DNA of 64,000 nt, from assembly GCA_964500675.1 (NCBI GenBank), contig CAZCNY010000007.1, forward strand, positions 81,582 to 145,581. Reading direction: 5' to 3'. A program made the position numbers and the translations under genes. The DNA comes from an uncultured Verrucomicrobiaceae bacterium (GTDB taxonomy: Bacteria > Pseudomonadota > Gammaproteobacteria > Pseudomonadales > CAMLJR01). Positions 2,339 through 29,536 of the stretch are shown piece by piece. Positions within the stretch are counted from its first letter, which is position 1. Each line of letters begins with the position of its first letter. The notes beneath the pieces were generated by a model, which was given only the letters and a program-made list of their open reading frames with translations, was not told the origin of the DNA and ran no database searches.

Positions 2339-2465
2339 GATGTCGGGTCTGCGCATGACGATTAAGAGCGATGCGAAATTATCCTGGCTTGAACGCGCTA
2401 ATGCCAGCCGTTTTATTGACGATAATGTGTTCGCATTTATTGCAGAGGCGCGATGCAATCCGCCC

Positions 2466-3245: not shown

Positions 3246-3320
3246 CGTTGATCCCTGCTGTCTTGCTCCCCGCCTCCTTCGGGAGAGGGGTTGGCGGTGA
3301 GGAAACTTATTCTGCGCTCG

Positions 3321-3737: not shown

Positions 3738-3885
3738 AAGTGTGATTCCTGATCGCGCCGGCGGCGTAAGAAAACAATGGCCGGCATTGTAGCGGTCTCT
3801 TCGAGGCGGCAACATCGGCGCGGCTGTGGTTAAATAAGCGGTCTGTTGCATTCTCCCTGAAATCTGTTCATTCGAGGCTTTTGCT

Positions 3886-4923
3886 GTGATCAAAGTCGGC
3901 ATCGTCGGTGGCACCGGTTATACCGGCGTCGAATTGTTGCGCATCCTGTCCAAGCATCCGCAGGTCGAACTGGTCGCGATCACCTCGCGCTCGGAGGCGG
4001 GGCAAGCTGTTGCGGACATGTACCCGAATCTGCGCGGCCACGTCGATCTCAAATTCACGGTGCCCGATCACGTTGCGCTCGCCCAATGCGATGTGGTGTT
4101 TTTCGCCACGCCGCACAATGTTGCGATGCAGACCGTGCCCGATCTTATCGAGCGCGGCGTGCACATCATCGATCTATCGGCGGATTTTCGGATTCGCGAT
4201 GCGCAGTTGTGGTCGAAATGGTATGGCGAGCCGCACACGGCGCCCGAACTGCTCGCCAAAGCCGTTTACGGCCTACCCGAAGTCAACCGCGAGCGCATTC
4301 GCGAGGCGCAATTGATTGCGGCGGCGGGCTGCTATCCGACTTCGGTGCAATTGGGTTTTCTGCCGCTACTCGAAAAAGGCTGGATCGATCCCGCGCGTTT
4401 GATTGCAAACTCGGCGTCGGGTGTCAGCGGTGCGGGCAAGAGCGCGAAAATCGACAACCTGTTCGCCGAAATCAACGACAGCTTCAAGGCCTATGGGGTA
4501 TCGGGCCATCGCCACTTGCCTGAAATCGAACAGGGCCTCGGCGCTATCGCGGGCAAACCCGTGCAGGTGACGTTCGTGCCGCATCTGTTGCCGATTGTGC
4601 GCGGTATACACTCGACGCTGTATGCGGAATTAACCGGCGATATTCCACTCGAACAATTACAGCAGGCATTCGAAGAGCGTTACGCGAACGAGCCGTTCGT
4701 TGATGTGCTGCCGAAAGGTGTGTTGCCGCAGACGCGCAGCGTGAAAGGCGCGAATATCTGTCGCATCAGTGTGCAGCGACCGCAGGGTCGCAACACTGTG
4801 GTTGTACTTGCGGTGATCGACAATTTGGTGAAAGGCGCCTCGGGTCAGGCGGTGCAGTGCATGAATATCATGTGCGGTCTGCCCGAAACGCAGGGGCTCG
4901 ATATCGTCGCACTGTTGCCGTGA
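3886..4923 (+). CDS. argC: N-acetyl-gamma-glutamyl-phosphate reductase
   Basis: 345 aa with [21 protein letters not shown] Rossmann start and AAGCYPTS active-site Cys context. Confidence 0.95.
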
Positions 4924-4947
4924 TATAAATTATTTCTAGAGGTTGTT

Positions 4948-5301
4948 ATGTCCGTTGTTACCGAATTCGTGCCGCAGGTTTTGCATCTGACCGACAACGC
5001 TGTCGCCAAAGTGAAAGCGTTAGTCGCAGAGGAAGAAAACCCATCGCTCAAATTGCGCGTATACGTCACGGGCGGCGGCTGCTCGGGATTTCAGTACGGT
5101 TTTTCGTTTGAGGACGAGGCTGCCGAAGACGACACGCTCGTGGAAAAAGACGGCGTGACCGCGCTGGTCGATCCGCTCAGCTACCAATATCTCGTCGGTT
5201 CCGAAGTCGATTACAAAGAAGGGCTAGAAGGCTCGCGCTTCGTCATCAATAATCCGAACGCCGCAACGACCTGCGGCTGCGGCTCTTCGTTTTCGATTTG
5301 A
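4948..5301 (+). CDS. erpA: iron-sulfur cluster insertion protein (A-type carrier)
   Basis: 117 aa with GGGCSGFQY and a C-terminal CGCGSSF cluster-ligand motif. Confidence 0.92.
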
Positions 5302-5463
5302 TTTCTATTTACTCCGAGCGAAGCGATCGCTAAGTTCAAGGCCATGCAACAGCGCATACCGGTCGAGCATTTCATGATGATGAAGCCGCCGGGGCTGCCG
5401 GCTGCGAAATTTGTCGAATACGCCGAGCTATTCGCCAAAGAGGTTATTCCCGCCTTTTGCTGA
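5302..5463 (+). pseudogene. C-terminal remnant (~50 codons) of a luciferase-like monooxygenase (LLM) family gene
   Basis: The frame starting right after the erpA stop reads FLFTPSEAIAKFKAMQQRIPVEHFMMMKPPGLPAAKFVEYAELFAKEVIPAFC*. This matches the usual LLM C-terminal pattern (TPE..A..L......V.H.....P.GLP......S.ELFA.EV.PAF). The preceding ~300 codons of such a gene are absent. Confidence 0.55.
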
Positions 5464-5595
5464 CACGAAACAATCCAGCCCGGGCGATTTTGAAAGCGGT
5501 AACCTGACGTCGGCTTTCATCTAATGGTAATGTGCGTCGTAAGCATTTCGTTCAAAATGCCGTCCACCATTATCTCTCTTCTTGGCTGATGAATC

Positions 5596-6288
5596 ATGTC
5601 GAAACCGGCTCTTGTTCCATTACCTATCATTGCCATTGTGGGAGGCACCGGCGATCTCGGTACCGGATTGGCGCGGCGTTGGGTGCAGGCGGGTTATCCG
5701 GTAATTATCGGTTCGCGCACGGCCGATAAAGCGGAGGCGGCGGCGGCAGCACTGAAAGCGCTGATGCAACAGCGCGGCGCCGGCGCGGTCGATGTGCGCG
5801 GCGCAGACAATGTAGCGGCAGCGCAGGCAGCCGATATCGTCGCGTTGACGGTGCCGTTCAGTCACCAGGCGCCGACACTCGAACAGATTAAATCCGCGCT
5901 CGAAGGCAAAATCCTGATCGATGTCACGGTGCCGCTGGTGCCGCCGAAAGTGATGCGCGTGCAATTGCCGCCCGAGGGCTCGGCGGGACAGATCGCGCAG
6001 AACATTCTCGGTGAAGGCGTGCGCGTGGTGTCGGCGTTTCAGAATGTCGCCGCGCATCATTTGCAGGAAGGCCATGCGCTCGATTGCGATGTGCTTGTGT
6101 GCGGCGACGATAAAGAGGCGCGCGCGCAAGTCATTGCGTTAGTCGAGGCGGCCGGCATGCGCGGTTTTCATGCGGGCTCGATCGCGAACGCGGCGGCGGC
6201 CGAGGCGCTGACCTCGCTGCTCATCTTCATCAACAAACAATACAGCTGCCACGCCGGAATTCGTATCACCGGCCTTAATGACCGTTGA
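5596..6288 (+). CDS. npdG: NADPH-dependent F420 reductase (F420:NADP+ oxidoreductase)
   Basis: 230 aa with IAIVGGTGDLGTGLARRW dinucleotide-binding start typical of Fno/NpdG. It heads the F420 cluster. Confidence 0.8.
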   Translation: MSKPALVPLPIIAIVGGTGDLGTGLARRWVQAGYPVIIGSRTADKAEAAAAALKALMQQRGAGAVDVRGADNVAAAQAADIVALTVPFSHQAPTLEQIKSALEGKILIDVTVPLVPPKVMRVQLPPEGSAGQIAQNILGEGVRVVSAFQNVAAHHLQEGHALDCDVLVCGDDKEARAQVIALVEAAGMRGFHAGSIANAAAAEALTSLLIFINKQYSCHAGIRITGLNDR

Positions 6289-6306
6289 ATAAGTGCGAGC
6301 ATTGAG

Positions 6307-7074
6307 ATGCGTTGTCAGTTGCAATTAAGCGCGCTGCCGGGTATTCCCTTCGTCGAGCCCGGCGATGATTTGTGTGCGCTGATGCTGGCGGCGCTCGATC
6401 GTGCGCAGCAAAAATTGCATGGCGGCGATGTGCTCGTGCTCGCGCAAAAAATCGTTTCCAAAGCCGAAAATCGCTACGTTTATTTGAATACGGTGACGCC
6501 GGGCGCGCGCGCTATCGAATTGGCGCGGCAGGCCGATAAGGATCCGCGCATTGTCGAATTGATTTTGCGCGAATCGGTCGAAGTGCTGCGTGTGCGCAAA
6601 GGCGCGATCATTGTCGAACATCGCAACGGTTATGTGCACGCGCATGCGGGTATCGATCAATCGAATATTGCTTCCGAATCCGATAATCCGCGCGTGTTGC
6701 TGTTGCCGGAAAATTCCGACGCCAGTGCTGCGCAATTGCGCGAACAATTGCGCGCGGCCACGGGTGTCGATGTGGCCATCATCATCAACGACAGCGCGGG
6801 ACGAGCGTGGCGCAATGGCGTGATCGGTTTCGCGCTCGGTAGCGCGGGTTTAATGCCGCTCGAAAATCGCATCGGCACGCGCGATTTATTCGGCCGCGCG
6901 CTCGAAGTGACAGAGGTTGCCGTCGCCGATGAACTGGCGGCGGCGGCATCGTTTTTGATGGGGCAGGCCGCCGAAGGTGCGCCCGTGGTATTGATTCGCG
7001 GTGCTGATATCACGCGATCGGATGACGGTTCGAAAACATTGATTCGTGCGCGCGCGCAGGATTTGTTTCGATGA
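6307..7074 (+). CDS. cofE: coenzyme F420-0:L-glutamate ligase, stand-alone form
   Basis: 255 aa with GDVLVLAQKIVSKAENRYV and HAHAGIDQSN motifs of CofE. There is no C-terminal nitroreductase-like (FbiB-type) extension. Confidence 0.85.
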   Translation: MRCQLQLSALPGIPFVEPGDDLCALMLAALDRAQQKLHGGDVLVLAQKIVSKAENRYVYLNTVTPGARAIELARQADKDPRIVELILRESVEVLRVRKGAIIVEHRNGYVHAHAGIDQSNIASESDNPRVLLLPENSDASAAQLREQLRAATGVDVAIIINDSAGRAWRNGVIGFALGSAGLMPLENRIGTRDLFGRALEVTEVAVADELAAAASFLMGQAAEGAPVVLIRGADITRSDDGSKTLIRARAQDLFR

Positions 7075-8051
7075 CGTTTTCTGGGAAAAAATATCTTGCG
7101 CTGTCGGGCGGCGTCGGCGGCGCGAAACTGGCGGTCGGTCTCGCGCAGTTGCTTGCGCCCGAGCAATTAACGATTGTCGGCAACACGGGCGATGATTTCG
7201 ATCACTACGGCCTGCGCATCTGCCCCGATCTCGACAGCGTCATGTACGCGCTCGCCGGCCGCAATAACGCGGTACAAGGCTGGGGTCTAACGAATGAATC
7301 GTGGCGCGTGCTCGATCAGCTCGGCGCGATCGGCGGCGAAACCTGGTTCAAGCTCGGCGATCTCGATATCGCCACGCATCTGCTGCGTTCGGAATATTTG
7401 CGGCGCGGCGAATCGCTGAGCGCAGCGACCAGAAAATTATGTGCGGGCTTCGGCGTTCAGCATCGCTTGGTGCCGATGAGCGACGACGCGGTAGCAACCA
7501 TCGTCGAAACGGCGAAGGATGAAACCGAAAGCGGCGATCTGAGTTTTCAGCATTATTTCGTGCGCGAGCAATGCAAACCGGTTGTGCGCGGTTTTTATTT
7601 TCGCGGCATCGAGCAAGCCAGGCCGCATCCCGAACTATTGCAGCCGTTGCTCGATAATGCCGTCGACGCCGTGATCATTTGTCCGTCGAATCCGTTTGTG
7701 AGCGTCGATCCGATGCTTCAATTGCCGGGCGTGCGCACAGCATTGCAAAATACCTCGGTGCCCGTCATCGCGGTTTCGCCGATTGTCGGCGGCCATGCCA
7801 TCAAAGGCCCTGCGGCAAAAATGCTGCGCGAGCTTAATTACGCTAGCAGTGCGTTTGCAGTAGCGAAGTACTATCGCGACGTTGTCGATGGTTTTGTGAT
7901 CGATCACGCCGATGCCGATCAACTCGCTGCGATTGCCGAACTCGATATCGTCGCGCATGCAACGGCGAGCGTGATGAAAACTCACGATGATCGCGTTCAA
8001 CTCGCGCGTGCGGTGCTGCAATTCGCCAGTGCACTCGCGGGCGAGCAGTGA
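7071..8051 (+). CDS. cofD: 2-phospho-L-lactate (or analogue) transferase
   Basis: 326 aa with [17 protein letters not shown] start typical of CofD/FbiA. ATGA overlap with the cofE stop. Confidence 0.88.
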
Positions 8052-8057
8052 GAAAGC

Positions 8058-8801
8058 GTGATGCAAGTTCTATTGCCGCTCAAAGAATTCGCCGCCGCTA
8101 AACAGCGGCTCTCCGGTGTGCTCTCGGCTGCCGAGCGCGCGCAATTATTCGAGGCGATGGTCGAGGATGTGCTGCTGGTTCTGACGCGACATCCCGCGAT
8201 TGAAAATATTGCGATCTGCTCGCGCGATCACGCCGCGCGTTGGCTGGCGAATTATTACGAGGTCGAATTTATCGACGAAGCGAAATTGCCGTCCAGCGAT
8301 TTAAATACGGCGGTCAACGCGACGGTGCGTGAAATCGACTCGCGTGGCGAAAACGATCTATGCGTGGTGCACGGCGATTTACCGCTACTGAGCGCTGAAG
8401 ATGTCAGCGCATTTTTACAGGCCCATCGCGACGGTAAAATATCGGCAATGACGATCGCGCCCGATCGTCGCGGCAGCGGCACGAATCTGCTGGCATGGCG
8501 CGCGCTTCCAGATTTGCTGGTGAGTTACGGCGACAACAGTTTTCAGCGCCACTGTGCACTGGCGCGTGAATTGAATATCGATCCTACGATTTGCGATTTG
8601 CCCGGCGCTCGTTGCGATATCGACAATCCCGAGGATTTACTGTTGTTGGTAACGCAGCCCGCGTGCGATGGCGCCGCCAAGAGTCTGGCATTTTTACGCG
8701 ACAGCGGCATCGCCGAGCGGTTGCGCGCCATGCAGCGCAGCGCGAACCGCGCGTGCGGCAAAGAAATCACGCACGGCGGAGATGATCGTGAGCGCGCCTG
8801 A
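8058..8801 (+). CDS. cofC: 2-phospho-L-lactate/phosphoenolpyruvate guanylyltransferase
   Basis: 247 aa with the VLLPLKEFAAAKQRLS start typical of CofC/FbiD. Sits between cofD and fbiC. Confidence 0.78.
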   Translation: MMQVLLPLKEFAAAKQRLSGVLSAAERAQLFEAMVEDVLLVLTRHPAIENIAICSRDHAARWLANYYEVEFIDEAKLPSSDLNTAVNATVREIDSRGENDLCVVHGDLPLLSAEDVSAFLQAHRDGKISAMTIAPDRRGSGTNLLAWRALPDLLVSYGDNSFQRHCALARELNIDPTICDLPGARCDIDNPEDLLLLVTQPACDGAAKSLAFLRDSGIAERLRAMQRSANRACGKEITHGGDDRERA

Positions 8802-11235
8802 GATTTTCGAAATAGTTGCGCAGCAATTGCTCGCCGATAAGCCGCTCAGCGATAGCCAGGCGTTGCAGCTGGCCGCTATCGACGATACCGCAGCATTGAT
8901 GCGCGTCGCCGCGCAATTGCGCGATCGCGGTTTTCGCAATGTCGTTACGTATTCGCGCAAGGTTTTTCTGCCGCTGACGCAACTCTGTCGCGATGTGTGC
9001 CATTACTGCACCTTCGCGCAAACGCCGCGCCATCTTGCCGCGCCGTATATGTCCGTCGATGATGTGATCGCGCAAGTCAAAGCGGCAGAAAAATTGGGTT
9101 GCAAAGAAGCGCTGCTCACGCTCGGCGAAAAACCCGAGCTGCGCTATCGCGTCGCGCGCGAAGCGCTCGATGCGATGGGCTTTGCAACGACGCTCGATTA
9201 TGTTGCGCATGTCGCCGAACGCATCGTGCAGGAAACTTCGGTGCTGCCGCATATCAACGCGGGCACGATGACGCGCGAAGAAATTGCGAAATTACGCACA
9301 GTGAGTGCGTCGATGGGCATCATGCTCGAATCGGCCGCCGCACGTTTGTGCGACAAAGGTCTGCCGCATCACGGTTCGCCCGATAAAATTCCCGCCGTGC
9401 GTTTGGAAACGCTGCGCTTGGCGGGCGAAGCTAACGTGCCGTTCACGAGCGGGATTTTGATCGGCATCGGCGAAACACGGCGCGAGCGCATCGAAAGTTT
9501 ATTGGCATTGCGTGAGATTCATGTGCCCCGTGGTTGTCAGCACAGGGGTCATCTGCAAGAAATCATCGTGCAGAATTTTCGCGCCAAGCCGAATACATTG
9601 ATGGCGCAAGCGCCAGAGCCCGATCTCGATGAATTGCTGTGGACGCTCGCAGTGGCGCGCTGCATTTTCGGCGCGCAGATGAGCATCCAGGCGCCGCCGA
9701 ATTTAAGTCCCGGCGTGTTGCCGCAATTAATCGCCGCGGGCATCAACGATTGGGGCGGTGTGAGCCCGGTGACACCCGATTATGTCAATCCCGAAGCGCC
9801 GTGGCCGCATCTCGATAATCTCGCGCGTGAAACGGCGAGCGCCGGGAAATGTTTGCAAGAGCGGCTGACGATTTATCCTCGGTATGTTTTGGAAAAAGAG
9901 CGTTGGCTCGATGCCTCGCTGCATGAAAATGTGTTGAAGAAAATCGACGCCGAAGGTTTTGCGCGGCTCGATGAGTGGATGCCGGGCAGCGCCACAGAAT
10001 TGCCAGCATTCGATGTCGAGCTGCTGACGAAACCGCCGCGTGCTGCCAGTAAAGATATTGAAGCGATCGTTGCGCGTGCGCGCGCTGGCGAGCGTTTGCA
10101 TGAAAATGAAATCGTACGGCTATTTCAGGTGCGCGGCGATGATTTTGCATTCGTGACACAGGCCGCGAATGCGCTGCGCAATGCGGTGAACGGCGATCGC
10201 GTCGCCTACGTCGTCAATCGCAATATCAATTACACCAATATCTGCTATTTCAAATGTCAGTTCTGTGCCTTCTCGAAAGGCAAGCTCAGCGAAAATTTGC
10301 GCGGGCGTCCTTACGATTTATCGCTCGATGAAATTCAGCGCCGTGTGCGCGAAGCGTGGGATCGCGGCGCGACGGAAGTGTGCATGCAGGGCGGCATTCA
10401 TCCCGACTACACGGGGCAGAAATATCTCGAAATTCTCGCCGCGGTAAAAGACGCGGTGCCGGCAATGCATGTGCACGCCTTTTCACCGCTCGAAGTGTGG
10501 CAGGGCGCGAAAACACTCGGCGTCGATCTCGAAATCTTCTTGCGAAAATTAAAGGAAGCTGGGCTCGGCACGCTGCCGGGTACCGCGGCGGAAATTCTCG
10601 ACGATGAAGTGCGCGCGATCATCTGTCCCGACAAAATCAACACCGAAGATTGGTTGCGTGTGATAGAAACCGCGCATCGCGTCGGTTTGAAAACGACATC
10701 GACCATCATGTACGGCCACGTCGAAAAATTGCAGCACTGGGCGCGGCATTTATTGCGCGTGCGCGCTGTGCAGGAACGCACGGGTGGCATCACCGAATTT
10801 GTGCCGCTGCCGTTTGTGGCGAAGGAGGCGCCGCTGTATTTGAAAGGCCGTGCGCGGCGCGGTCCGACGTTTCGCGAAGCGGTGTTGATGCACGCGGTGG
10901 CTCGCCTCGTCTTGCATCCATTGATTCCGAATATTCAAACGTCGTGGGTCAAGATGGGCGCTGCGGGTGTTGCCGCGTGTTTACATGCGGGTGCGAATGA
11001 CGTTGGTGGCACGTTGATGAATGAATCGATTACGCGTGCAGCGGGTGCCAGTCATGGCGAGGAAATGCCGCCCGAAATGATGGATGCACTGATTCGCAAT
11101 TGTGCGCGCGAGCCGCAGCAGCGCACGACGTTGTACGGCGAGCCGAGTGCTGCACAGGTTGAAAAATCATACAGCGCGCCCGCGCTCGTGCAGATTGTGA
11201 ATACGCCGGTGCCGAAAAAGATTGGCGGAATTTGA
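8782..11235 (+). CDS. fbiC: FO synthase, fused CofG-CofH (two radical-SAM domains)
   Basis: ORF 8668..11235 trimmed to ATG 8782, preceded by GGCGGAG and overlapping cofC by 20 nt. Two radical-SAM Cys triads are present: CRDVCHYCTF and CYFKCQFCAF. Confidence 0.9.
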   Translation: MIVSAPEIFEIVAQQLLADKPLSDSQALQLAAIDDTAALMRVAAQLRDRGFRNVVTYSRKVFLPLTQLCRDVCHYCTFAQTPRHLAAPYMSVDDVIAQVKAAEKLGCKEALLTLGEKPELRYRVAREALDAMGFATTLDYVAHVAERIVQETSVLPHINAGTMTREEIAKLRTVSASMGIMLESAAARLCDKGLPHHGSPDKIPAVRLETLRLAGEANVPFTSGILIGIGETRRERIESLLALREIHVPRGCQHRGHLQEIIVQNFRAKPNTLMAQAPEPDLDELLWTLAVARCIFGAQMSIQAPPNLSPGVLPQLIAAGINDWGGVSPVTPDYVNPEAPWPHLDNLARETASAGKCLQERLTIYPRYVLEKERWLDASLHENVLKKIDAEGFARLDEWMPGSATELPAFDVELLTKPPRAASKDIEAIVARARAGERLHENEIVRLFQVRGDDFAFVTQAANALRNAVNGDRVAYVVNRNINYTNICYFKCQFCAFSKGKLSENLRGRPYDLSLDEIQRRVREAWDRGATEVCMQGGIHPDYTGQKYLEILAAVKDAVPAMHVHAFSPLEVWQGAKTLGVDLEIFLRKLKEAGLGTLPGTAAEILDDEVRAIICPDKINTEDWLRVIETAHRVGLKTTSTIMYGHVEKLQHWARHLLRVRAVQERTGGITEFVPLPFVAKEAPLYLKGRARRGPTFREAVLMHAVARLVLHPLIPNIQTSWVKMGAAGVAACLHAGANDVGGTLMNESITRAAGASHGEEMPPEMMDALIRNCAREPQQRTTLYGEPSAAQVEKSYSAPALVQIVNTPVPKKIGGI

Positions 11236-11331
11236 TGTCGTAGACGGGTTGCTTTGATTTGTAAGCGGACGTTCATTGTATTTATGTGATGGACAAGTTA
11301 TCGGGTGGAGCGGACATCAAAGATCAAGAAA

Positions 11332-12024
11332 TTAAAGAACAAACCTATAACCAACCCCGACTTCCGTTAGGAAATGTTTAGGTTTAGCCGGTTCGACTTC
11401 GAGTTTTTGCCGCAGGTTTGCCATAAAAACGCGCAGTGAAGTACTGTTATCCATATACGCCTGTCCCCAGACATCGCGAAGTAATTGTCGATGCGTTAAT
11501 ACCTTGTTTGGATGGCCAATTAAATATACCAAGAGACGGTATTCGATAGGCGTCATATGCACTAATTCATCGCTACGCTTTACGATGCGCGCAGCAAGAT
11601 CAATTCGTATCGAGTCAAATTCAATGACAGGAGACACCTCATCTGTCGCTTTTGTTAAACGGCGCAACATTGCGCGTACGCGCGCGAGCAATTCACCGGT
11701 CCCGAATGGCTTAACGAGATAATCGTCCGCGCCGGCATCGAGCGCGGCAATTTTGTCCTCTTCTTGCGCGCGCGCCGAAAGCACCAGCACGGGTATTGCC
11801 GACCAAGCGCGCAGATCGCGAATGAATTCAACGCCGTCGCGATCGGGTAAACCGAGATCGAGAATAATCAAATTCGGATTGTGTGTGCCCGCCTCGATCA
11901 AACCGCGCTCTACGGTTTCCGCTTCGAATACTTGGCAATTTTCGGCCTCCAGCGCAGAACGCACGAACCGGCGGATTTGCATTTCGTCCTCGACAATCAC
12001 CACGACAGGTTTGTGCGTGCTCAT
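11332..12024 (-). CDS. kdpE: two-component response regulator KdpE (OmpR family)
   Basis: 230 aa with receiver domain (DLGLPDRDG, KPF) plus winged-helix domain. 4-nt overlap with kdpD. Confidence 0.9.
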   Translation of the reverse strand: MSTHKPVVVIVEDEMQIRRFVRSALEAENCQVFEAETVERGLIEAGTHNPNLIILDLGLPDRDGVEFIRDLRAWSAIPVLVLSARAQEEDKIAALDAGADDYLVKPFGTGELLARVRAMLRRLTKATDEVSPVIEFDSIRIDLAARIVKRSDELVHMTPIEYRLLVYLIGHPNKVLTHRQLLRDVWGQAYMDNSTSLRVFMANLRQKLEVEPAKPKHFLTEVGVGYRFVL

Positions 12025-14735
12025 GTGCCAATCCTTCGTTGCGCTTGTTCAAGCGTAATGGGCAGTAACCCCGTCTTATCGACGAAGGGTGGGTCCCCGA
12101 GTGGTAATGTAAACACGAAGCGCGCGCCGCCTAAATGACTTTTCTCGACCCAAATGCGGCCACCATGCGCGGAGACAATCGCGCGACAAATCGCAAGACC
12201 TAAACCCACGCCTGGTGTTGTCGTTTCCGTTTGCCCTCGCGTGAATTTTTCAAACACCTGCTCTTCCATGCCCGCCGGCAAACCAGGACCATCGTCTTCC
12301 ACGGCGATTTCGGCACACTCATTATTTACACTTGCTGCGATTTCAATACGACTACCCGCCGGGGTATATTTCTGCGCATTCTCCAATAAATTAAATAGAA
12401 CCCGCTCGATCAGCACCGCGTCAAATTCAAGCAATGGCAGGTCAGGTGGCAGCTTAACAGTGACTAGATACCCGCCTAGAAAGCTGCTAGTTGCCTTCAC
12501 CGCGGCGCCAACGATTTCTTCGAGTGGCTGCCACTGTTTATTTAATTTAATCTCGCCCGATTGCAGGCGCCCCATGTCGAGCAAATTATTGACGAGTGCC
12601 GTCATGCGCTGTGTTTCGTTTTTAATAGACAACGCGATATCGTGTTGTTCGGCACTCAATTCGGGTTTGCTGACCGATAAATATTCGGTGAGTCCGAGCA
12701 AGGTGGTGAGCGGCGTGCGTAAATCGTGAGACAACGCGGATAACAATGAATTGCGCAGGCGCTCCGATTCGATTTGTACCGTGGTGCGCTGTGCGATATC
12801 GACATAATGCACACGTTCGACCGCCAGCGCGATCAAACTCGCGAAGGTATCGAGCAGGCGGCGCTGCTCCGGGATCAACAGCCAGCGCGTATTGCGCGGT
12901 TCGACTGCAAGCACGCCGCGAAAACGCATCGGCGCTCGCAGCGGCAGATATAAGATCGGCGCAGCCGGCAGCGTGTCCGTGCCGTTTCCGGCGGGCTCGC
13001 CGTGATCGAAAGCCCATTGTGCAACACCGATATCGACTGCGAGCGCGGACTGGCCGAGCGGCGCTTGCAGCTTGTCGCCATCATCGGCAATCAGCAGCGC
13101 CGATTTCGCGCGAAAACCGCTCTCGATAAAGCGGCCGGCGATTTCGGCGATTTGTTCGAGCATCAGCGCGGCCGATAATTCGCGCGACATTTCCGCGATG
13201 GCACGCGCGCGCAATTCGCGGCTCATCGCCACGCGCGCTTGATATTGCGAGCCGGCCGTCAATTGGCCGGTGATCAACGCCACCGTGAGCATCACGGCAA
13301 ACGTGAGCAGGTAACGCACGTCGCTTACCGCAAAGGTGAACCGCGGCGGCACGAAAAAGAAATCGAAAGAAGCGACACTGAGTATGGCAGCAAGCACGGC
13401 GGGACCGCGGCCGAAATACGCGGCGACGAGCACCACCGTGAGCAAAAAAATCATGGCGGTGTTGGTGAGCTCGACGTATGGATAAAGACCGGTAGCGATA
13501 ACTGTTGCGACGACGCAGCCGAATGCGCCGAGCCCGTAATCGAGCCATTGAATTTCGCGCGTGTCGGTATCGCGCTGATCGACCACGTTGCGCTTGTCGT
13601 CGCCATCGCGCGCGACATAAATAATATCGAGATCGGGCGCGAGTTTTCCCAGACGCTCGGCGAGCGAACGTTGCCACCACAGCGGACGCATCGTGCTGCG
13701 CCCGATCAGCACTTTGGCGAGATTGTGATCGCGTGCGTAACGCGCAACGGTCTGTACGATATCGTTGCCGGGCAACGTGGCGGTTTCGGCCCCCATATCC
13801 TGCGCGAGCTTGAGTGTTTTCAGAATATGCTGCCGCCGCGATGATGACAGCCGTTGCAGTTGCGGTGTTTCGGTATAAATCGCGTGCCACGGCGCACCGA
13901 GTTTGCTCGCGAGACGCGCGGCGCTGCGCACGAGTTTTTCTTCGCCCGCGCCGGGGCCGATGCACACAAGCAATGATTCGCGCGTTTGCCAAACGGGCAA
14001 TACCGCCTGGTGCTGTCGATACTGGCGCATTTCATCGTCGATGCGATCAGCCGTACGCCGCAGTGCGAGTTCGCGCAGTGCGATCAAGTTGCCCTTTCTA
14101 AAAAAATTATTGATGGCGCGCTCGGCTTGCTGCGCCATGTAAACCTTGCCCTCCTTTAAACGCTGCAATAATTCGTCGGGCGGCAAATCGACGACAACGA
14201 CCTCATCGGCTTCGTCGAACACGCGATCCGGTACGGTCTCCCACACGCGAATCCCCGTGATGCTACCGACGATATCGTTGAGACTTTCGATGTGCTGCAC
14301 GTTGACCGTGGTGTAAACATCGATGCCGGCCGCCAACAATTCTTCGATATCCTGCCAGCGTTTGGGATGGCGCGAGCCCGCGACATTCGAATGCGCGAGT
14401 TCGTCGACGAGAATCAATTGCGGTTTACGCGCGAGCGCTGCATCGAGATCGAATTCCTTCAGCGTGCGATCGCGATATTCAATCGACTGCAACGGAACTT
14501 GTTCGAAACCTTCGAGCAATGCCGCCGTTTCACCGCGGCCATGCGTTTCGATAATGCCGATAACGGCATCGACGCCCTGCGCGCGAATCTGTCGCGCCGC
14601 CGACAACATCGCGTAGGTTTTACCGACGCCGGCAGAGGCACCAAAAAATATTTTGAGTTTGCCGCGCCGTGCACGCTCGTCTTCCTGCCTGATGCTTTCA
14701 AGCAATTGATCCGGATCGGGGCGACGTTCGCTCAT
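12021..14735 (-). CDS. kdpD: sensor histidine kinase KdpD
   Basis: 904 aa with N-terminal KdpD domain (GASAGVGKTYAML), Usp-like region, 4 TM segments, GAF-like region and a HisKA/HATPase core (LSHDLRTPL, GLGLAI). Confidence 0.93.
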   Translation of the reverse strand: MSERRPDPDQLLESIRQEDERARRGKLKIFFGASAGVGKTYAMLSAARQIRAQGVDAVIGIIETHGRGETAALLEGFEQVPLQSIEYRDRTLKEFDLDAALARKPQLILVDELAHSNVAGSRHPKRWQDIEELLAAGIDVYTTVNVQHIESLNDIVGSITGIRVWETVPDRVFDEADEVVVVDLPPDELLQRLKEGKVYMAQQAERAINNFFRKGNLIALRELALRRTADRIDDEMRQYRQHQAVLPVWQTRESLLVCIGPGAGEEKLVRSAARLASKLGAPWHAIYTETPQLQRLSSSRRQHILKTLKLAQDMGAETATLPGNDIVQTVARYARDHNLAKVLIGRSTMRPLWWQRSLAERLGKLAPDLDIIYVARDGDDKRNVVDQRDTDTREIQWLDYGLGAFGCVVATVIATGLYPYVELTNTAMIFLLTVVLVAAYFGRGPAVLAAILSVASFDFFFVPPRFTFAVSDVRYLLTFAVMLTVALITGQLTAGSQYQARVAMSRELRARAIAEMSRELSAALMLEQIAEIAGRFIESGFRAKSALLIADDGDKLQAPLGQSALAVDIGVAQWAFDHGEPAGNGTDTLPAAPILYLPLRAPMRFRGVLAVEPRNTRWLLIPEQRRLLDTFASLIALAVERVHYVDIAQRTTVQIESERLRNSLLSALSHDLRTPLTTLLGLTEYLSVSKPELSAEQHDIALSIKNETQRMTALVNNLLDMGRLQSGEIKLNKQWQPLEEIVGAAVKATSSFLGGYLVTVKLPPDLPLLEFDAVLIERVLFNLLENAQKYTPAGSRIEIAASVNNECAEIAVEDDGPGLPAGMEEQVFEKFTRGQTETTTPGVGLGLAICRAIVSAHGGRIWVEKSHLGGARFVFTLPLGDPPFVDKTGLLPITLEQAQRRIGT

Positions 14736-15345: not shown

Positions 15346-15369
15346 GATCTTTACTCCGTTGCTCGCTGA

Positions 15370-23352: not shown

Positions 23353-24411
23353 ATGCGCGTAGGGTTACATTTGGGGTATCAGAATCTCAACGGCATGTCC
23401 GATGCCGAGAAATTCATGCAGGAAACCCGGTTCGCTATTGAGGCCGAGGCGATGGGTTTCGATTATGTCGGCCCGGTCGAGCATCACTTTACCGATTATG
23501 CGGCGTGCCCCGATCCTTTTCAGATGTTGGCCTACGTCGCGGCGAAAACAAAAACAATAAAACTGATTACGGCCGCGACCATTTTGCCGTGGAATAATCC
23601 GCTGCGCGTGGTGGAGCAGGCGATCGAACTCGATATTTTGAGCGAAGGGCGTTTGATACTCGGCATGGGTCGCGGCGCGGCGCGCCGGGAATTCAAATCG
23701 TTCGGCGTCGAACTCAAAGATTCGCGCGAAATGTTCGATGAAGCTGCGCTCATCGTTATGCAGGGCACCGAAACCGGTATCGTCGAAGCCGACGGCCAAT
23801 GGTTCAAGATTCCGCGCACCGAAATTCGTCCGCGTCCGTTCAAATCCTTTAAAGATCGCACCGTCATGGTGTCGATGTCACCTTCGTCGGTGGACGTGGC
23901 GGCGCGCTATGGGTTGCAAACGCTGCGCTTTTCGCAGGGCGATTGGCGCAATGCGATTCCCGAAATCAATCAATACCGAAAAACATTCCTCGAATTGCAC
24001 AAGCGCGAAGCGCCACCGTTTATTATTTCCGACTTCGTGCTGTGCTTTAACGATAAGCGCAGGGTGACCGAATATTGCGATAAATATTTTTCGCGCATGT
24101 TCGCGACGGTCGCCAATCATTACGAATTCATGAGCGCCCATTTCAAGGAGCTGCCGTCGTATTCGACCTATGCCTACATGGGTCAAATGGCGGAAGCCGC
24201 CGGCGGCCCCGACAAGGCTTATCGCGATTACATCGGCGGCAATATGATCGGCACGCCCGAAGAATTGGTGGAGTACCATCTCAACCGCGCGTCGATGGTT
24301 GGCGATTACGAAATTCTCGCGAATTTCAGTTTTGGCGGTTTGCCTTACGAATTGGTTTACGAGCAGGCCAAATTGTTCGCGGACAAGGTTTTGCCGAAAC
24401 TCAAAGGCTAA
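23353..24411 (+). CDS. LuxA-like LLM-class flavin-dependent monooxygenase
   Basis: 352 aa. The FDYVGPVEHHFTDYAACPDPFQMLAYVAA and GRLILGMGRGAARREF blocks parallel bacterial luciferase alpha (LLEHHFTEFG..., GRFRFGICRG). GGAG RBS present. Confidence 0.85.
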   Translation: MRVGLHLGYQNLNGMSDAEKFMQETRFAIEAEAMGFDYVGPVEHHFTDYAACPDPFQMLAYVAAKTKTIKLITAATILPWNNPLRVVEQAIELDILSEGRLILGMGRGAARREFKSFGVELKDSREMFDEAALIVMQGTETGIVEADGQWFKIPRTEIRPRPFKSFKDRTVMVSMSPSSVDVAARYGLQTLRFSQGDWRNAIPEINQYRKTFLELHKREAPPFIISDFVLCFNDKRRVTEYCDKYFSRMFATVANHYEFMSAHFKELPSYSTYAYMGQMAEAAGGPDKAYRDYIGGNMIGTPEELVEYHLNRASMVGDYEILANFSFGGLPYELVYEQAKLFADKVLPKLKG

Positions 24412-24439
24412 TCAAATAATAACGTAGGGGATTCAGTCG

Positions 24440-25195
24440 ATGGCGGAAAACAAACGCATTGCGCTGGTGACTGGCGGCGGTGTCGGCATGGGCGCGGCGG
24501 CGTGTCAGCGTTTCGCCAGAGATGGCATGGCGGTGGCTGTGCTCGATATCAACGGTGATGCCGCTGCAAGCGTGGCGGCTGCAATCAATGCGGCTGGCGG
24601 TCGAGCACTGGCGGTTGTCGCGGATGTCTCCGATCGAGCGCAGGTGGAAATTGCCGTCGATAAAATTCGCGCAGCGCTCGGCCCGATTACCGTGTTGGTA
24701 AATAACGCCGGGGTCGAGAGCTTTATGCCATTTGAGGAAATCGGCGACGATACCTGGGATCGGTTGATGGCGGTCAATCTCAAGGGTGCGTACATCGTCA
24801 CCCAGGTTGTGCTGCCGGATATGTTCGCGTGCGGCTGGGGACGAATAATCAACATCTCTTCGTTCGGTGCGCAAATCGGCGCGCCGACGATGGTGCATTA
24901 CTCGGCATCGAAAGGCGGCATTATTTCTATGACAAGATCGCTGGCATTAGAACTCGGTCGAAGAGGTATTACCGTGAATTCAATTGCGCCAGGCTTCATC
25001 GATACGCCGATGGCGCGTCGAGCGATAGCGGGTAATAAATTTCCTATGCCCATCGAGGACATGCTCAAGTCATATCCCATTCCGCGTTTGGGAAAACCGG
25101 AGGAAGTGGCGGCGGCCTGCGCGTTTTTCGCCTCCGAAGAGGCGGGATATATCACCGCGCAACTGTTGGGTGTTAATGGCGGAACGGCGGTTTAG
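24440..25195 (+). CDS. SDR-family oxidoreductase (FabG-like)
   Basis: 251 aa with TGGGVGMG cofactor motif, NNAG, and the S...YSASK catalytic triad context. Confidence 0.9.
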   Translation: MAENKRIALVTGGGVGMGAAACQRFARDGMAVAVLDINGDAAASVAAAINAAGGRALAVVADVSDRAQVEIAVDKIRAALGPITVLVNNAGVESFMPFEEIGDDTWDRLMAVNLKGAYIVTQVVLPDMFACGWGRIINISSFGAQIGAPTMVHYSASKGGIISMTRSLALELGRRGITVNSIAPGFIDTPMARRAIAGNKFPMPIEDMLKSYPIPRLGKPEEVAAACAFFASEEAGYITAQLLGVNGGTAV

Positions 25196-25260
25196 TTTCG
25201 TCAATCGATTGAAACGCACAGGCTCCTATCGAAGCTGTGTCGAAAAACTACCCAGTAAAA

Positions 25261-25389
25261 TTAGCTCTTAGGGTAAAACGAAACATCGGCACTCGCGCGG
25301 AAATTGACTACACGCAGTCCGGCGGGACCGGCCGCAAAACCGTAGTAGGTATTGCCGGGAATATAATGGGATGTACTCGCTTGCGCCAT
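25261..25389 (-). CDS. unlisted 42-codon ORF (MAQASTSHYIPGNTYYGFAAGPAGLRVVNFRASADVSFYPKS)
   Basis: Below the ORF-track size cutoff. The ATG is preceded by cccGAGGAGttatgaatt (strong SD, 8-nt spacing) and lies 35 nt downstream of the LLM stop on the same strand. I recognise no homologue. Confidence 0.4.
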   Translation of the reverse strand: MAQASTSHYIPGNTYYGFAAGPAGLRVVNFRASADVSFYPKS

Positions 25390-25424
25390 AATTCATAACT
25401 CCTCGGGAACTAGACACGATTACA

Positions 25425-26333
25425 TCAAAGTTTTGCAATCACCTCCGCTCCAAACCGCGCGGCGTTATCGCACCATTCCGCGCGCGTTTTGCCATCGATG
25501 CTGATGCCCGCGCCGATCACGCCCATTTCCTTGAATTTGCCGATCTTGTCGATGAGTTGTGGCGGAGTCCATTTTTCTCCCGGTTGCGTGATGCTGGCGA
25601 GAAATATCTGCGGCAGGTTGTTGCGTCCGACTTTTTCGCAGTGTTCGCGCATGTAAGCGATGCCGTCGGCGAGGTCGAGTTCGCTGGTCATCGCGGCGGT
25701 GCGTGCGGTCGATGAGACTTGTGCGGGCGTGAAGAAGGGATTCCAGCCGTCGGCCATTTCGACGACGCGGCGAATCGCGCGTTTGGAATTGCCGCCGATA
25801 TAGAGAAGCGGATGCGGCGTTTGCACCGGACGCGGACGCATGCGATTGCCGCGCGCGCTGTAGCCGGTGCCTTCGAAATTAAATTCTTCGCCGGTCCACG
25901 CGAGCTTCATCGCTTGCAGATATTCATCCATGGTTTCGTTGCGGCGTTCGAAATCTGCGCCGAGCGCGAAATATTCGCCTTTCAAATAACCCGCACCGAA
26001 GCTCAACGTTAAACGGCCGTTGGAAAATACATCGAGCGTCGCCGCTGCGCGCGCGACAATGAATGGATTGCGATACGGCAAAACTAAAATGCCGGTTTGC
26101 AGGCGCAATTTTTTCGTGTGCGCGGCGACGAGGCTCAGCATCACGAACGGATCTTGCGCATCGTGGCCGCCGGCATCGAGCCACTTGGCCGTCGGGCAGG
26201 GATGGTCGGTGACATTGCCGCCATTAAATCCAGCGCGCTCTACCGTTTGGCTGATTTCGGCAACCGCATCCATGGTGAGAAATTCTTGCGGAGCAAACGT
26301 GTGATCGAAGGGGAGCGTTACGTTGAGTTTCAT
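25425..26333 (-). CDS. LLM-class oxidoreductase, probably F420-dependent (Rv2161c-like subgroup)
   Basis: ORF 25425..26354 (TTG) trimmed to ATG 26333 (MKLNVTLPF...). NVTDHPCP, LQTGILVLPYRNP and GRLTLSFGAGY blocks are typical of the short (~300 aa) LLM group annotated as F420-dependent. The cofactor assignment is an inference. Confidence 0.75.
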   Translation of the reverse strand: MKLNVTLPFDHTFAPQEFLTMDAVAEISQTVERAGFNGGNVTDHPCPTAKWLDAGGHDAQDPFVMLSLVAAHTKKLRLQTGILVLPYRNPFIVARAAATLDVFSNGRLTLSFGAGYLKGEYFALGADFERRNETMDEYLQAMKLAWTGEEFNFEGTGYSARGNRMRPRPVQTPHPLLYIGGNSKRAIRRVVEMADGWNPFFTPAQVSSTARTAAMTSELDLADGIAYMREHCEKVGRNNLPQIFLASITQPGEKWTPPQLIDKIGKFKEMGVIGAGISIDGKTRAEWCDNAARFGAEVIAKL

Positions 26334-26377
26334 GATGAGTCTCTTTAATTTCAAAAAATCTTTTCGAAAAAAATAAA

Positions 26378-27235
26378 TTAATTTTCAATATCGCCAACCA
26401 GCGTCCACTTGCCCGCTTTGTTGCGAATCCATCCGCTCGATGCCCAGGTGCCGCCATCGACGGGAATCACGGTGCCCGTCACGTATTCGCTCATTTTCGA
26501 GGCGAGAAATACCGCGACATTGCCGCACTCGGTATCGATGCCGGGACGGCTGAGTGGAATGCGACGCGCGGTGGCGTCGGCTTGCGCAGGTGTCGGTTGA
26601 ATCCATGTCGAAGGATCGACCGGGCCTTTGATATTGCCGCTGAGTCCTGGCGTTAGGGTGTAATCGGGCGCAATCGCGTTGACGCGAATACCGTGATCGG
26701 CAAGCTCCAGTGCGAGCGAGCGCGTGAAATTGAGCATGCCGGCTTTACATGCGGCGTACACGGAAAAATACGGCGCCGCGCGCGATGCCTCGATACTCGC
26801 GACGTTGATAATGGCGCCGCCGCGTTTGCCATCGATGATGTGCGGCGCTGCCGCGGACGTTGCCGCGAGCATGCTGACTAAATTCAAATCGATCGCGCGG
26901 CGCCACGCGCGTTCGGATTGCTCGATAAACGGTTTGGGTGCGACACCGCCGGCGTTGTTGACGAGAATATCGATGCGCCCGAAATGTTTGTGCGTGCTTT
27001 CGACCATCACGCGAATCTGATCGGTGTCGGTGACGTCGGTCGTCACGGGCAACGCTGCGCGTCCCATTTCGCGCACACGCGCCGCCGTTTCCTCGCAGCG
27101 CTCGGGAACGATATCGGCGATGACAATATTTGCGCCCGCCGCTGCGAACGCGAGTGCAATCGCTCTGCCGATGCCGCCACCGCCGCCGGTGACGATGGCG
27201 ACTTGATCCGTTAAAAGTATGTCGGTTGTCTGCAA
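26378..27235 (-). CDS. SDR-family oxidoreductase
   Basis: 285 aa with VAIVTGGGGGIGRAIA, NNAG and YAACKAG catalytic motif. TTG start with GAGAGA upstream. Confidence 0.88.
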   Translation of the reverse strand: MQTTDILLTDQVAIVTGGGGGIGRAIALAFAAAGANIVIADIVPERCEETAARVREMGRAALPVTTDVTDTDQIRVMVESTHKHFGRIDILVNNAGGVAPKPFIEQSERAWRRAIDLNLVSMLAATSAAAPHIIDGKRGGAIINVASIEASRAAPYFSVYAACKAGMLNFTRSLALELADHGIRVNAIAPDYTLTPGLSGNIKGPVDPSTWIQPTPAQADATARRIPLSRPGIDTECGNVAVFLASKMSEYVTGTVIPVDGGTWASSGWIRNKAGKWTLVGDIEN

Positions 27236-27254
27236 AATAAAATTCTCTCAAACT

Positions 27255-27279
27255 AAACCAAATCAAACCAAATCAAATC
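27255..27279. repeat. short tandem decamer in an intercistronic spacer
   Basis: AAACCAAATC AAACCAAATC AAATC lies between the unknown 360-aa gene and the SDR gene. Confidence 0.6.
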
Positions 27280-27311
27280 AAGGCGAATGTCGGTGCTGTC
27301 AGCAAATAGCA

Positions 27312-28394
27312 TCAGCCAATAGTCGTCAGACTTTCATGTGATGAGCGCTCCATCATGCCATAGGCGGTTTGATCATCCCAGGTATAACGCACGCCCGTTT
27401 GCTGCAAGTTGAGGCCGCCGATATCGGGATTGCCGACGCGGAACGTCGACAACGCCGTCACGCCTTTGATGCGCGTAATGCCTAAATCGGATTCGAGTTC
27501 CAATGATGCATCGTCGCCTTCGCCGATAATACGGCGCAGCCACGGAATTTTCACGGCGCGCGCAGGATGCATTTTGCCATCTTGAAAAATATAACCCTCG
27601 TTCAATGCGGTGCCATCTTCGCGCGGCGGATAAGTGATATAGCCGAACGCGCGGCCATCGGGAAATACCGCGGATTGCCAGCAGTGCCCGCGAAAGCCGC
27701 CGAGTGGGCGCACGCTCTGGCGTTTAATGCGTAATCCAGAGCCTTTGAATTCACGCTCTTTGCCATCGAGATAAATCTCTTTACCATCAACAGAAAAAAA
27801 ACCGCGCGCGCGAAATAATTGTTCGAAGCGCCAGCCGATGCCCATGTACGCGGCTTCGGCAGCTTCCTTCTCCGACATTTTCGCCACTTTCTCCGGCGAA
27901 AAATCCTGCACCCACGCCGGCGTGACCATTTCCAATTCGACGTCGAAACGCACCTGCGTGCGCTTGTTCGGATCGATGGTTTTGTGAATTTGCTGATCCA
28001 CAGTGCCATCGATTGCGCTGCCATCGAAGGTCATGCGCCATTTGCGAAATGGCTCTAAGCACTGAAATGCAATCGGCCCGGCACCTAAGATTGCGGGTTT
28101 GCCGCTGGCATCGAAAGGCGAATGCGCAGCGCCCATACCGGCGCCATTCAAAATGCGTCCGCCCGCAATAGCAAAATTGCCTTGCACGCGACGGTTGTCC
28201 CACGACGACGCTTCGGCTTCGATGCCGACACGCGGAAACGCGAACGCGCCGTTTTCTTCGTACAGCCATACCGATGTGCTCTCGCGCATGTCTGGATTCG
28301 CGGGTTTTTCCGCAAAAAATAAATCGTGCTCGGGTGTGAGCCCATTCATCATTTGTTCGAGTGCTATTTGTTTGGGTGTTAAGGACATTTTCAT
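27312..28394 (-). CDS. conserved-looking protein of unknown function (360 aa)
   Basis: ORF 27312..28529 trimmed to MKMSLTPKQ... at 28394. This forms an ATGA overlap with the sulfotransferase stop and has GGGGA upstream. Soluble, beta-rich composition. I can name no motif. Confidence 0.65.
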   Translation of the reverse strand: MKMSLTPKQIALEQMMNGLTPEHDLFFAEKPANPDMRESTSVWLYEENGAFAFPRVGIEAEASSWDNRRVQGNFAIAGGRILNGAGMGAAHSPFDASGKPAILGAGPIAFQCLEPFRKWRMTFDGSAIDGTVDQQIHKTIDPNKRTQVRFDVELEMVTPAWVQDFSPEKVAKMSEKEAAEAAYMGIGWRFEQLFRARGFFSVDGKEIYLDGKEREFKGSGLRIKRQSVRPLGGFRGHCWQSAVFPDGRAFGYITYPPREDGTALNEGYIFQDGKMHPARAVKIPWLRRIIGEGDDASLELESDLGITRIKGVTALSTFRVGNPDIGGLNLQQTGVRYTWDDQTAYGMMERSSHESLTTIG

Positions 28395-29536
28395 TTTCCC
28401 CGCTTGGTCCACGCCGTCATGCGCGCGACATAATCCGAAAATAATTCGCGCACCTGATTGAGATCGACACCGTAAGCGCTCGCTTCTTTTTTTGAACTCG
28501 GTTCGCGATTTTCCGAATTCTGCTTCCACCAGCGCGCCATATTGGTTTCGAACTCGGCGCTGATCGGTTCGCCGAGCCAGTCATATAAACCGCGCACTTC
28601 GCGGATGGGGTCTTCGTGCATGGCGCGAAAATGAATATCGTAGAAACGTGCGTTATGGTTGGCCGCGTCGCGGAATTTCAGCGCGCGCTTCATTCCCTCG
28701 GACCACTGCCGAATATTCAGCTCCGCCACCGAAGCGATATCGAGATGTTCGGTGAATTTGCCGATGATATCGGCATACACTTCGATCACCGACAGCATGA
28801 CATCGGTGGGGTCGCGGTGCGTCATCACAAAACGCGCATCGGGAAAAGCGTTGTTGAGATGATCCAGATAAATTAAATGCGTCGGGCATTTGAGCCGCCA
28901 CGATTTTTCCGGCATGCGCCACTGCAATAATTTCAGCGCGCGGCGCTCGTACAGATACGTCGATGTCAGATCGGCGTCGAGCAGCCAATCGGCGTAAGAT
29001 GGAATTTGCGCGAACGCGATAAATATTTGCGATTTAAAATCGAGAGCCATTAAATCCTGACATTCTGCGGGCGCGTCTGCGCCGGAGGGCACGTGCGTTT
29101 TCAATCCGGTTGCGCGCTGCATCGCGGCGTCGTGATCGATTTTTGTATTTGCCAGGCAGGGCGGTGGGCACGGTTGCGCTGCTTCCATTCTGCGCAGCGA
29201 ACGCGCGTTGGGATCTTCCGCCAACAGAAATGACAGTACCGTCGAGCCCGTGCGCGGCAGGCTGATGCCGATCAGCGGCGCCTTGATCGACACCGCGTCG
29301 ATTTCCGGATATCGGCGATACCAGTCTTCAATTTGCAAACGCTGCTTGAGATGGTTGAGGATGCGCTCGCGCAGAATCTTGTCGCCGAGTGCATTGAGTT
29401 TCGCCTCGTTATTCAGCGCATCGACGAGAATTTCGAGACCTTCGAGGAACGTGTCCGCGCCGAAATCGTTGAGCCCGGTTTCAGCTTTGGCGATATCGAG
29501 CAACGTTTTATATCCTTCCACGGTCGAGCTCCTCAT
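28391..29536 (-). CDS. sulfotransferase-family protein (PAPS-dependent, Stf-like)
   Basis: 381 aa with an LPRTGSTVLSFLL 5'-PSB loop and a later THRDPTDVMLS block, typical of the bacterial Sulfotransfer_3-type family. Confidence 0.8.
   Translation of the reverse strand: MRSSTVEGYKTLLDIAKAETGLNDFGADTFLEGLEILVDALNNEAKLNALGDKILRERILNHLKQRLQIEDWYRRYPEIDAVSIKAPLIGISLPRTGSTVLSFLLAEDPNARSLRRMEAAQPCPPPCLANTKIDHDAAMQRATGLKTHVPSGADAPAECQDLMALDFKSQIFIAFAQIPSYADWLLDADLTSTYLYERRALKLLQWRMPEKSWRLKCPTHLIYLDHLNNAFPDARFVMTHRDPTDVMLSVIEVYADIIGKFTEHLDIASVAELNIRQWSEGMKRALKFRDAANHNARFYDIHFRAMHEDPIREVRGLYDWLGEPISAEFETNMARWWKQNSENREPSSKKEASAYGVDLNQVRELFSDYVARMTAWTKRGK

Follow-up and report, generated by a model that had tools for sequence, protein, structure and literature searches.

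The window analysed here is a stretch of 64,000 nucleotides of contig CAZCNY010000007.1, from an uncultured bacterium. Between positions 5596 and 11235 its forward strand holds five co-directional open reading frames (ORFs): npdG (or fno), cofE, cofD, cofC and fbiC. Each is intact, and each scores above the cut-off of its curated NCBIfam equivalog model. Together they very probably make up an intact operon of a known kind for the biosynthesis of cofactor F420, and not one of the kind that uses 3-phosphoglycerate (3-PG). The three-carbon linker of the product would rather be of the 2-phospholactate or phosphoenolpyruvate (PEP) kind.

The five genes would divide the work as follows. FbiC would make the deazaflavin FO from tyrosine and a riboflavin precursor. 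CofC would activate a phosphorylated three-carbon acid with GTP, CofD would move the activated acid onto FO, and a single-domain CofE would add the gamma-glutamyl tail. NpdG (Fno) would use NADPH to keep the cofactor reduced for oxidoreductases of the luciferase-like (LLM) class encoded nearby. The operon appears to be functional and vertically maintained, and of a type that belongs to marine Spongiibacteraceae-like Gammaproteobacteria.

What speaks against 3-PG is the sequence of CofC. In the CofC of Mycetohabitans (Mrhiz-CofC), Ser162 is required for activation of 3-PG; the equivalent residue in FbiD of Mycobacterium tuberculosis is Gly163 (PMC8764529). Changing Ser162 to any tested residue except Thr abolished the preference for 3-PG (PMC8764529). 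Ser or Thr at this position is used as a 3-PG diagnostic, and Met91, Cys95 and His145 also contribute (PMC8764529).

The CofC of the window was mapped onto 6bwg, 7p97 and 2i5e. At the positions of S162, M91, C95 and H145, the CofC of the window has Gly (in 'YGDNS'), Leu, Val and Ser. Counted over the window and 34 relatives, the S162 position is Gly in 35 of 35, the M91 position is Leu in 34, the C95 position is Val or Ile in all 35, and the H145 position is variable, with His in just one. On this pattern a 3PG-F420 product appears unlikely and can largely be set aside. The initial annotation had kept a 3-PG-derived F420 among its options; that option is disfavoured.

The metal-binding and substrate-binding residues that were checked in CofC are conserved, the Ser that binds the carboxylate among them. 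D107 (the Asp of GDLP), D187 and D189 (the D-x-D motif) and S161 (the equivalent of M. tuberculosis S166) are invariant in an alignment of four genera, and the equivalents of D116 and S165 are present in 35 of 35. The contacts with the substrate are as in enzymes that take 2-phospho-L-lactate (2-PL) or PEP: the two residues of the metal-binding Asp triad that were checked, Ser at S165, Thr or Ser at T147 and Leu at L92.

Gene calls and conservation of the operon

Gene calls were tested against the curated NCBIfam equivalog cut-offs and then against Pfam, with the scores given in Table 1. The five gene identities proposed in the initial annotation hold, with Pfam in agreement. Checked as orthologues by hidden Markov models, all five proteins pass their cut-offs with full-length matches. 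Both radical-SAM CxxxCxxC motifs of FbiC are intact, at residues 69 and 488. The best solved relative of NpdG is 5n2i, an F420:NADP oxidoreductase, at 147 bits, followed by 1jax at 111 bits.

CofE had also been described as a stand-alone protein without the reductase domain of FbiB, and this is borne out. It covers positions 3-244 of the 244 of TIGR01916, and its sole Pfam domain is PF01996 (F420_ligase), with no nitroreductase domain. Its matches in the PDB are single-domain CofE ligases of 249-254 aa.

The junctions are tight, and some depend on the choice of start codon. There are 18 nt between npdG and cofE, and the 4-nt overlap of cofE with cofD (ATGA) is as reported earlier. The 6-nt gap reported between cofD and cofC holds if cofC starts at GTG 8058; from ATG 8061, which is the more probable start judging by the relatives and an independent gene call, the gap is 9 nt. 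Likewise, the overlap of cofC and fbiC is the reported 20 nt from ATG 8782, and 14 nt from GTG 8788. A third start considered for fbiC, at 8668, gives the longest ORF (all three end at 11235). It is probably not used, because the FbiC proteins of relatives measure 812-833 aa and fit the later starts; the gene call on an identical Logan contig is 815 aa.

Table 1. Features of the window, operon first, in window numbering; model scores are in bits, followed by the cut-off.
Feature	Position	Strand	Basis or remark
npdG (fno), NADPH-dependent F420 reductase, predicted to recharge the cofactor	5596..6288	+	TIGR01915 214.6 vs 149.8; PF03807
cofE, single-domain F420-0:gamma-glutamyl ligase, 255 aa	6307..7074	+	TIGR01916 273.2 vs 180.65
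cofD (fbiA), transferase predicted to join the activated C3 acid to FO	7071..8051	+	TIGR01819 304.2 vs 257.45
cofC (fbiD), predicted guanylyltransferase	8058..8801	+	TIGR03552 148.6 vs 105; residue mapping; clade analysis
fbiC, fused CofG and CofH FO synthase	8782..11235	+	NF006687 1118 vs 1018; TIGR03550 and TIGR03551 full-length
argC	3886-4923		Left flank of operon
erpA	4948-5301		Left flank of operon
LLM oxidoreductase relic, last 49 codons only	5311..5457	+	Starts just past the erpA stop; tblastn
kdpE	11332-12024	-	Right flank of operon
kdpD	12021-14735	-	Right flank of operon
kdpC, then two long ORFs where kdpB and kdpA would be expected (identity by position)			Right flank, beyond kdpD
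LLM, SDR, F420-type LLM, SDR, DUF7064 and sulfotransferase genes (block)	23353..29536		Pfam; synteny
Predicted F420-dependent LLM-class oxidoreductase	25425..26354	-	TIGR03619 229.5 vs 166.9

The operon is not rare. Searching with CofE brought up about 8000 homologues. The nearest of them are all about 255 aa long, and many already bear the name F420 ligase from NCBI or JGI. The CofE of the window itself is present in the databases, on an NCBI contig of 244 kb and in a Logan assembly. Where the nearest ones carry a name, they come from Spongiibacteraceae metagenome-assembled genomes (MAGs), Zhongshania, Litorivivens lipolytica, Microbulbifer, Halioglobus and Bermanella. A scan with the CofC alignment, taking one genome per species, gave 35 loci in at least six genera. 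Among them are seven named species of Zhongshania, Spongiibacter thalassae, Litorivivens, Microbulbifer agarilyticus and Biformimicrobium.

Nearly all of these 35 loci share the order npdG-cofE-cofD-cofC-fbiC, and so do the related loci L002 to L004. The neighbouring genes vary by genus. It is therefore a conserved unit of Spongiibacteraceae, Microbulbifer and allies, and not a singular insertion. The initial annotation had described the genes as wedged between argC-erpA and the kdp locus, in a group where F420 is only sporadic; with its conservation in at least 35 species-level genomes, the operon is no oddity in a foreign backbone. The public pipelines PGAP and IMG already name the genes of these operons. 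In the open-access literature that was searched, no mention was found of F420 together with these host genera, which leaves database annotation.

Two of the related loci, L005 and L007, come from MAGs labelled Verrucomicrobiaceae. They are 73-79% identical in DNA to the operon, and are probably mis-binned or mislabelled. Some metagenomic relatives of CofE are fusion proteins (P0128, P0175, P0145, P0154, P0182, P0129 and P0135), in the combinations NpdG-CofE, CofC-CofE and CofE-nitroreductase.

Reductase and CofC lineage

Mycobacteria, with their FbiABCD system, start from PEP and arrive at dehydro-F420-0, which the C-terminal part of FbiB then reduces. The window resembles this system in its fused FbiC, in a CofD that is as near to FbiA as to archaeal CofD, and in the Gly of CofC at the place of G163 of FbiD. 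It differs in having its genes in a single operon that includes fno, and in having neither an FbiB fusion nor a nearby FbiE.

The reductase was searched for in several ways. Pfam scans of the called ORFs of the window, all except one of 70 aa and the two long ones at the places of kdpB and kdpA, found no nitroreductase domain (PF00881). A tblastn search with two FbiB-type nitroreductase domains against the window and 39 related loci gave nothing, the best E-value being 0.23. Clustering of the neighbouring genes over 35 loci, within about 10 kb of the operon, yielded no recurrent nitroreductase family. The earlier statement that no reductase is clustered with these genes is therefore upheld, for the window as well as for the related loci.

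Elsewhere such reductases are common. A library-wide HMMER search with CofE found FbiB-type fusions of CofE and nitroreductase, in which the CofE part is 52% identical to that of the window. The FbiB-type nitroreductase domain in turn matches a great many stand-alone homologues, about 200-220 aa long; one of those listed belongs to a Cupriavidus species. These stand-alone genes sit in operons with the order npdG-cofE-(PNPOx)-nitroreductase-cofD-cofC, often followed by an LLM gene and sometimes with fbiC ahead. As a contrast set, 83 reductase-anchored loci were used, 80 of them from a metagenome scan. The same order recurs there, with the reductase between cofE and cofD.

Among operons with this gene order there is thus a common type that contains the reductase, and the operon of the window is its counterpart without one. 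The order and orientation of npdG, cofE, cofD and cofC agree with those in operons of the form npdG-cofE-(PNPOx)-fbiE-cofD-cofC. Compared with one of these, L040, the window is 53% identical in CofE, 53% in CofD and 50% in NpdG. What differs is that the window has no nitroreductase, for which the 4-nt overlap of cofE and cofD also leaves no room, that its fbiC lies at the 3' end, and that its CofC belongs to a clade apart, at no more than 28-39% identity.

This difference in CofC was looked at by comparing the reductase-less clade (G) with the reductase-linked set (N), using mean identities. For CofD, G and N are 49% identical to each other, against 59-60% within G, 53-54% within N, and 38-40% to archaeal CofD and mycobacterial FbiA. 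CofE behaves similarly: 50% between the sets, 66% within G and 56% within N. For CofC, G and N are just 28-29% identical, with 47-50% within G and 38% within N. That is about as far as either set is from the solved proteins (archaeal CofC, FbiD of M. tuberculosis and CofC of Mycetohabitans), at 29% for G and 28-32% for N. In simple neighbour-joining trees on naive ORF calls, the CofCs of G form one bipartition in 30 of 30 bootstraps.

On these figures CofD is clearly more closely related between the two operon types than to the solved proteins, and CofC is not. The CofCs of G also have features of their own. Their 'AKQRL' contains a Gln at a position that is Ser or Thr in almost every CofC compared with them, and they have Leu in place of Val ahead of the first Lys. 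At the Cys95 position they have Val or Ile, where the N set mostly has Leu. They also share a conserved C-terminal extension, with a median of 47 residues past the EDL motif against 17. This divergence hints at a changed substrate; it is suggestive, and not a proof.

Candidate precursors of the linker

At none of the 35 loci is there a reductase, and the CofCs form a lineage of their own. Because of this, the reading preferred here leans towards a precursor that needs no reduction. The CofC and CofD pair would take such a precursor and lead directly to canonical F420, and the obvious candidate is 2-PL. This 2-PL route is put forward tentatively, with somewhat less than an even chance of being right. 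It shares with the archaeal 2-phospholactate route a single-domain CofE and a locus where no reductase is found. It differs from it in that the FO synthase of the window is fused, and not split into CofG and CofH, and its CofC is no nearer to archaeal than to bacterial CofCs.

A number of points weigh against this reading and the evidence used for it. No enzyme that forms 2-PL is known in any organism, and no bacterial source of it is known (PMC6450877). The bacterial systems that have been resolved use PEP: mycobacteria, Thermomicrobium and probably Ca. Entotheonella (PMC8498797, PMC8764529). A reductase may be encoded elsewhere in the genome, the view taken here being 64 kb of it and about 20 kb per relative. 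CofC is a fast-evolving protein overall, as the identities within the G clade also indicate, so it may have diverged further with its substrate unchanged; the trees, moreover, are of the simple kind described above. Finally, the residue rule for 3-PG is based on a handful of characterised enzymes.

Two lines of evidence turned out to carry no weight in either direction. The initial annotation had listed the lack of a clustered 2-phospholactate-forming enzyme; the observation is correct, and it says nothing as long as no such enzyme is known anywhere (PMC6450877). Telling PEP from 2-PL by similarity to solved CofD and FbiA, or CofC and FbiD, was dropped, as the scores are equidistant and do not discriminate. 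The CofD of the window, for example, scores 200 bits against CofD of M. mazei and 195 bits against FbiA of M. smegmatis. Alphaproteobacterial CofCs are reported to prefer 2-PL in vitro; this was measured with a foreign CofD, and the authors caution against reading it as the substrate in vivo (PMC8764529).

Pyruvate kinase phosphorylates L-lactate as a side reaction. In Zhongshania, Litorivivens and Spongiibacter a gene for it precedes the operon at a distance of one or two genes (L013 at 4191-5612 and 12 further loci, cluster c6). It encodes a standard enzyme (NF004491, 584 bits), belongs to the conserved backbone in these 13 loci, and is not found near the operon of the window. As a source of 2-PL it has been dropped to a speculative lead.

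The strongest rival to the 2-PL route is the PEP route with an unlinked reductase. Here dehydro-F420-0 would be reduced to canonical F420 by an FbiE-type nitroreductase, or by an unrelated ene-reductase, encoded elsewhere. PEP is the precursor in every resolved bacterial system and there is no known source of 2-PL (PMC6450877, PMC8498797). Stand-alone homologues of FbiE are very common, and the CofDs of the window clade are nearer to those of FbiE operons (49%) than to solved CofD or FbiA (39%). Against this, a nitroreductase lies within about 10 kb in 0 of 35 related loci from several genera, the contrast operons keep theirs inside, between cofE and cofD, and the two operon types have sharply different CofC lineages. 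The SDR genes next to the operon, which might have served as a reductase, look like parts of catabolic cassettes and not like biosynthetic genes. On balance this route is somewhat unlikely.

An SDR gene lies within 10 kb of the operon in 26 of 35 relative loci. As the missing dehydro-F420 reductase these genes were rejected: they fall into unrelated groups, with only about 30% identity from one group to another, and the window has no adjacent SDR.

An SDR inside the operon was rejected as a biosynthetic gene as well. In a sister lineage an insertion splits the operon between cofD and cofC. In L008 it is an SDR alone (3538-4344). In L123-L125, at about 7001-11473, that slot holds a whole cassette of SDR, TetR, LLM, glyoxalase and LLM genes. 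A homologue 73% identical to the SDR of L008 lies in a catabolic cluster without cof genes. The SDR of L008 is best read as the remnant of a larger cassette that consumes the cofactor.

A third possibility is a non-canonical product: either unreduced dehydro-F420 as the working cofactor, or a linker that is neither lactyl nor glyceryl, through a changed specificity of CofC. This would suit the lack of an operon-linked reductase and the separate CofC clade, with its Gln in 'AKQRL', its Val or Ile at the C95 position and its tail of about 47 rather than about 17 residues. There is also a precedent, since Mycetohabitans changed precursor in a reductase-less background (PMC8764529). Dehydro-F420 is less stable than the saturated forms, though (PMC8764529, PMC8498797), the known substrate contacts of CofC are conserved as in 2-PL and PEP enzymes, and the residues specific to the clade are without a demonstrated role. 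Such a product is improbable. The initial annotation had raised it; as an idea it stands, with support no greater than for other F420 producers that lack FbiE.

Related to this is the idea that the CofC lineage switched precursor when, or because, no reductase was available, leading either to canonical F420 made from 2-PL by a bacterial route not described so far, or to a deazaflavin with a new or unreduced linker; both outcomes would be novel. This is also quite unlikely. If true, the paired operons with and without reductase would be a natural experiment on the evolution of the F420 side chain.

The weakest rival, a 3PG-F420 producer like Mycetohabitans rhizoxinica, is extremely improbable given the CofC residues described at the start, in spite of the proteobacterial host, the stand-alone CofE, the lack of a linked reductase (Mycetohabitans needs none for dehydro-F420), and the detection of 3PG-F420 in environmental samples from unknown producers (PMC8764529).

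A near likeness in the literature is with the clusters of Paracoccus denitrificans and Oligotropha carboxidovorans, which also have a fused CofG-CofH, separate CofC and CofD, a single-domain CofE and Fno (PMC8498797). The difference is that the five genes of the window form one tight operon, fno included. The literature has not settled the linker route or the physiological role of such proteobacterial clusters with a single-domain CofE either (PMC8498797). The initial annotation had called the precursor of CofC and the fate of dehydro-F420 open, and on this the literature agrees, for bacteria and archaea with a single-domain CofE ('CofX') (PMC6450877, PMC8498797). The linker question is a real one. 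It is also generic to producers with a single-domain CofE, and already present in the literature; what is added here is that it is narrowed by the exclusion of 3-PG.

Enzymes that use F420 are sought for biocatalysis. We know of no established role for F420 in Gram-negative bacteria. The operon type described here is compact (5.6 kb), self-contained with its NADPH-linked recharging enzyme, and present in easily cultured marine heterotrophs. The contrast with the reductase-containing sisters, together with these cultured hosts, makes the linker question cheap to test. If the operon truly works without a reductase, it would make a convenient cassette for producing F420 in heterologous hosts, and a direct handle on the origin of the lactyl linker in organisms with only a single-domain CofE. 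If a reductase is present in another part of these genomes, the locus is just another ordinary F420 operon.

Flanks and cofactor-using genes

The flanks of the operon are as described earlier, with argC and erpA at 3886-5301 and the kdp locus from 11332 (Table 1). G+C is even over the operon region, at 0.56-0.60, so there is no compositional sign of recent import. Recent horizontal import was rejected on this ground, and also because L002 shares the adjacency of operon and kdp despite a rearranged left flank.

The similarity in DNA to L002 is 78% and spans about 5320 to 11217 of the window. It takes in most of the LLM relic, which by tblastn is 84% identical to residues 287-335 of an intact LLM of 336 aa that precedes npdG in L002. 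An intact LLM gene precedes npdG in L005 and L006 as well. The relic appears to mark a rearrangement that replaced the original left flank of the operon.

On the other side, kdp genes follow the F420 operon both in the window (11332-19279) and in L002 (16190-20771), in opposite orientations. That kdpED adjoins fbiC in the window, reversed compared with L002, points to an inversion.

The LLM-class oxidoreductase at 25425-26354 is a probable user of the cofactor. Its orthologue in L005, the closest relative, sits two genes past fbiC. Downstream of the L005 operon come a fatty-acid-hydroxylase-like gene and, after it, LLM, SDR, DUF7064 and sulfotransferase genes. The window is syntenic with this block at 25.4-29.5 kb, where the kdp locus and further genes separate it from the operon. 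The larger block at 23353-29536 probably consists of F420-using catabolic genes that were split off from the operon by the kdp locus. In the Zhongshania loci (L013 at 754-4020, and others), genes for a KshA-like Rieske oxygenase, an extradiol dioxygenase and acyl-CoA-dehydrogenase-like proteins lie upstream of the operon. They suggest a neighbourhood of steroid or aromatic degradation.

A promoter scan found no sigma-70-like site, and terminator-like sites occur at chance level; these scans are uninformative.

The rest of the window holds a phoB-phoR-pstB-phoU set at 36.9-40.9 kb and a HiPIP gene at 40947-41264. A glyoxylate-shunt block at 42800-50394 has genes for isocitrate dehydrogenase, malate synthase G, the AceK kinase/phosphatase, a LysR regulator and isocitrate lyase. 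Sizeable ORFs at 19764-21587, 29657-31342, 32872-33591 and 51183-52589 have no significant match in Pfam or NCBIfam. At 59192-62764, on the forward strand, a protein of 1190 aa of the carboxylic-acid-reductase type, with adenylation, carrier and reductase domains, is encoded beside a TetR-family gene.

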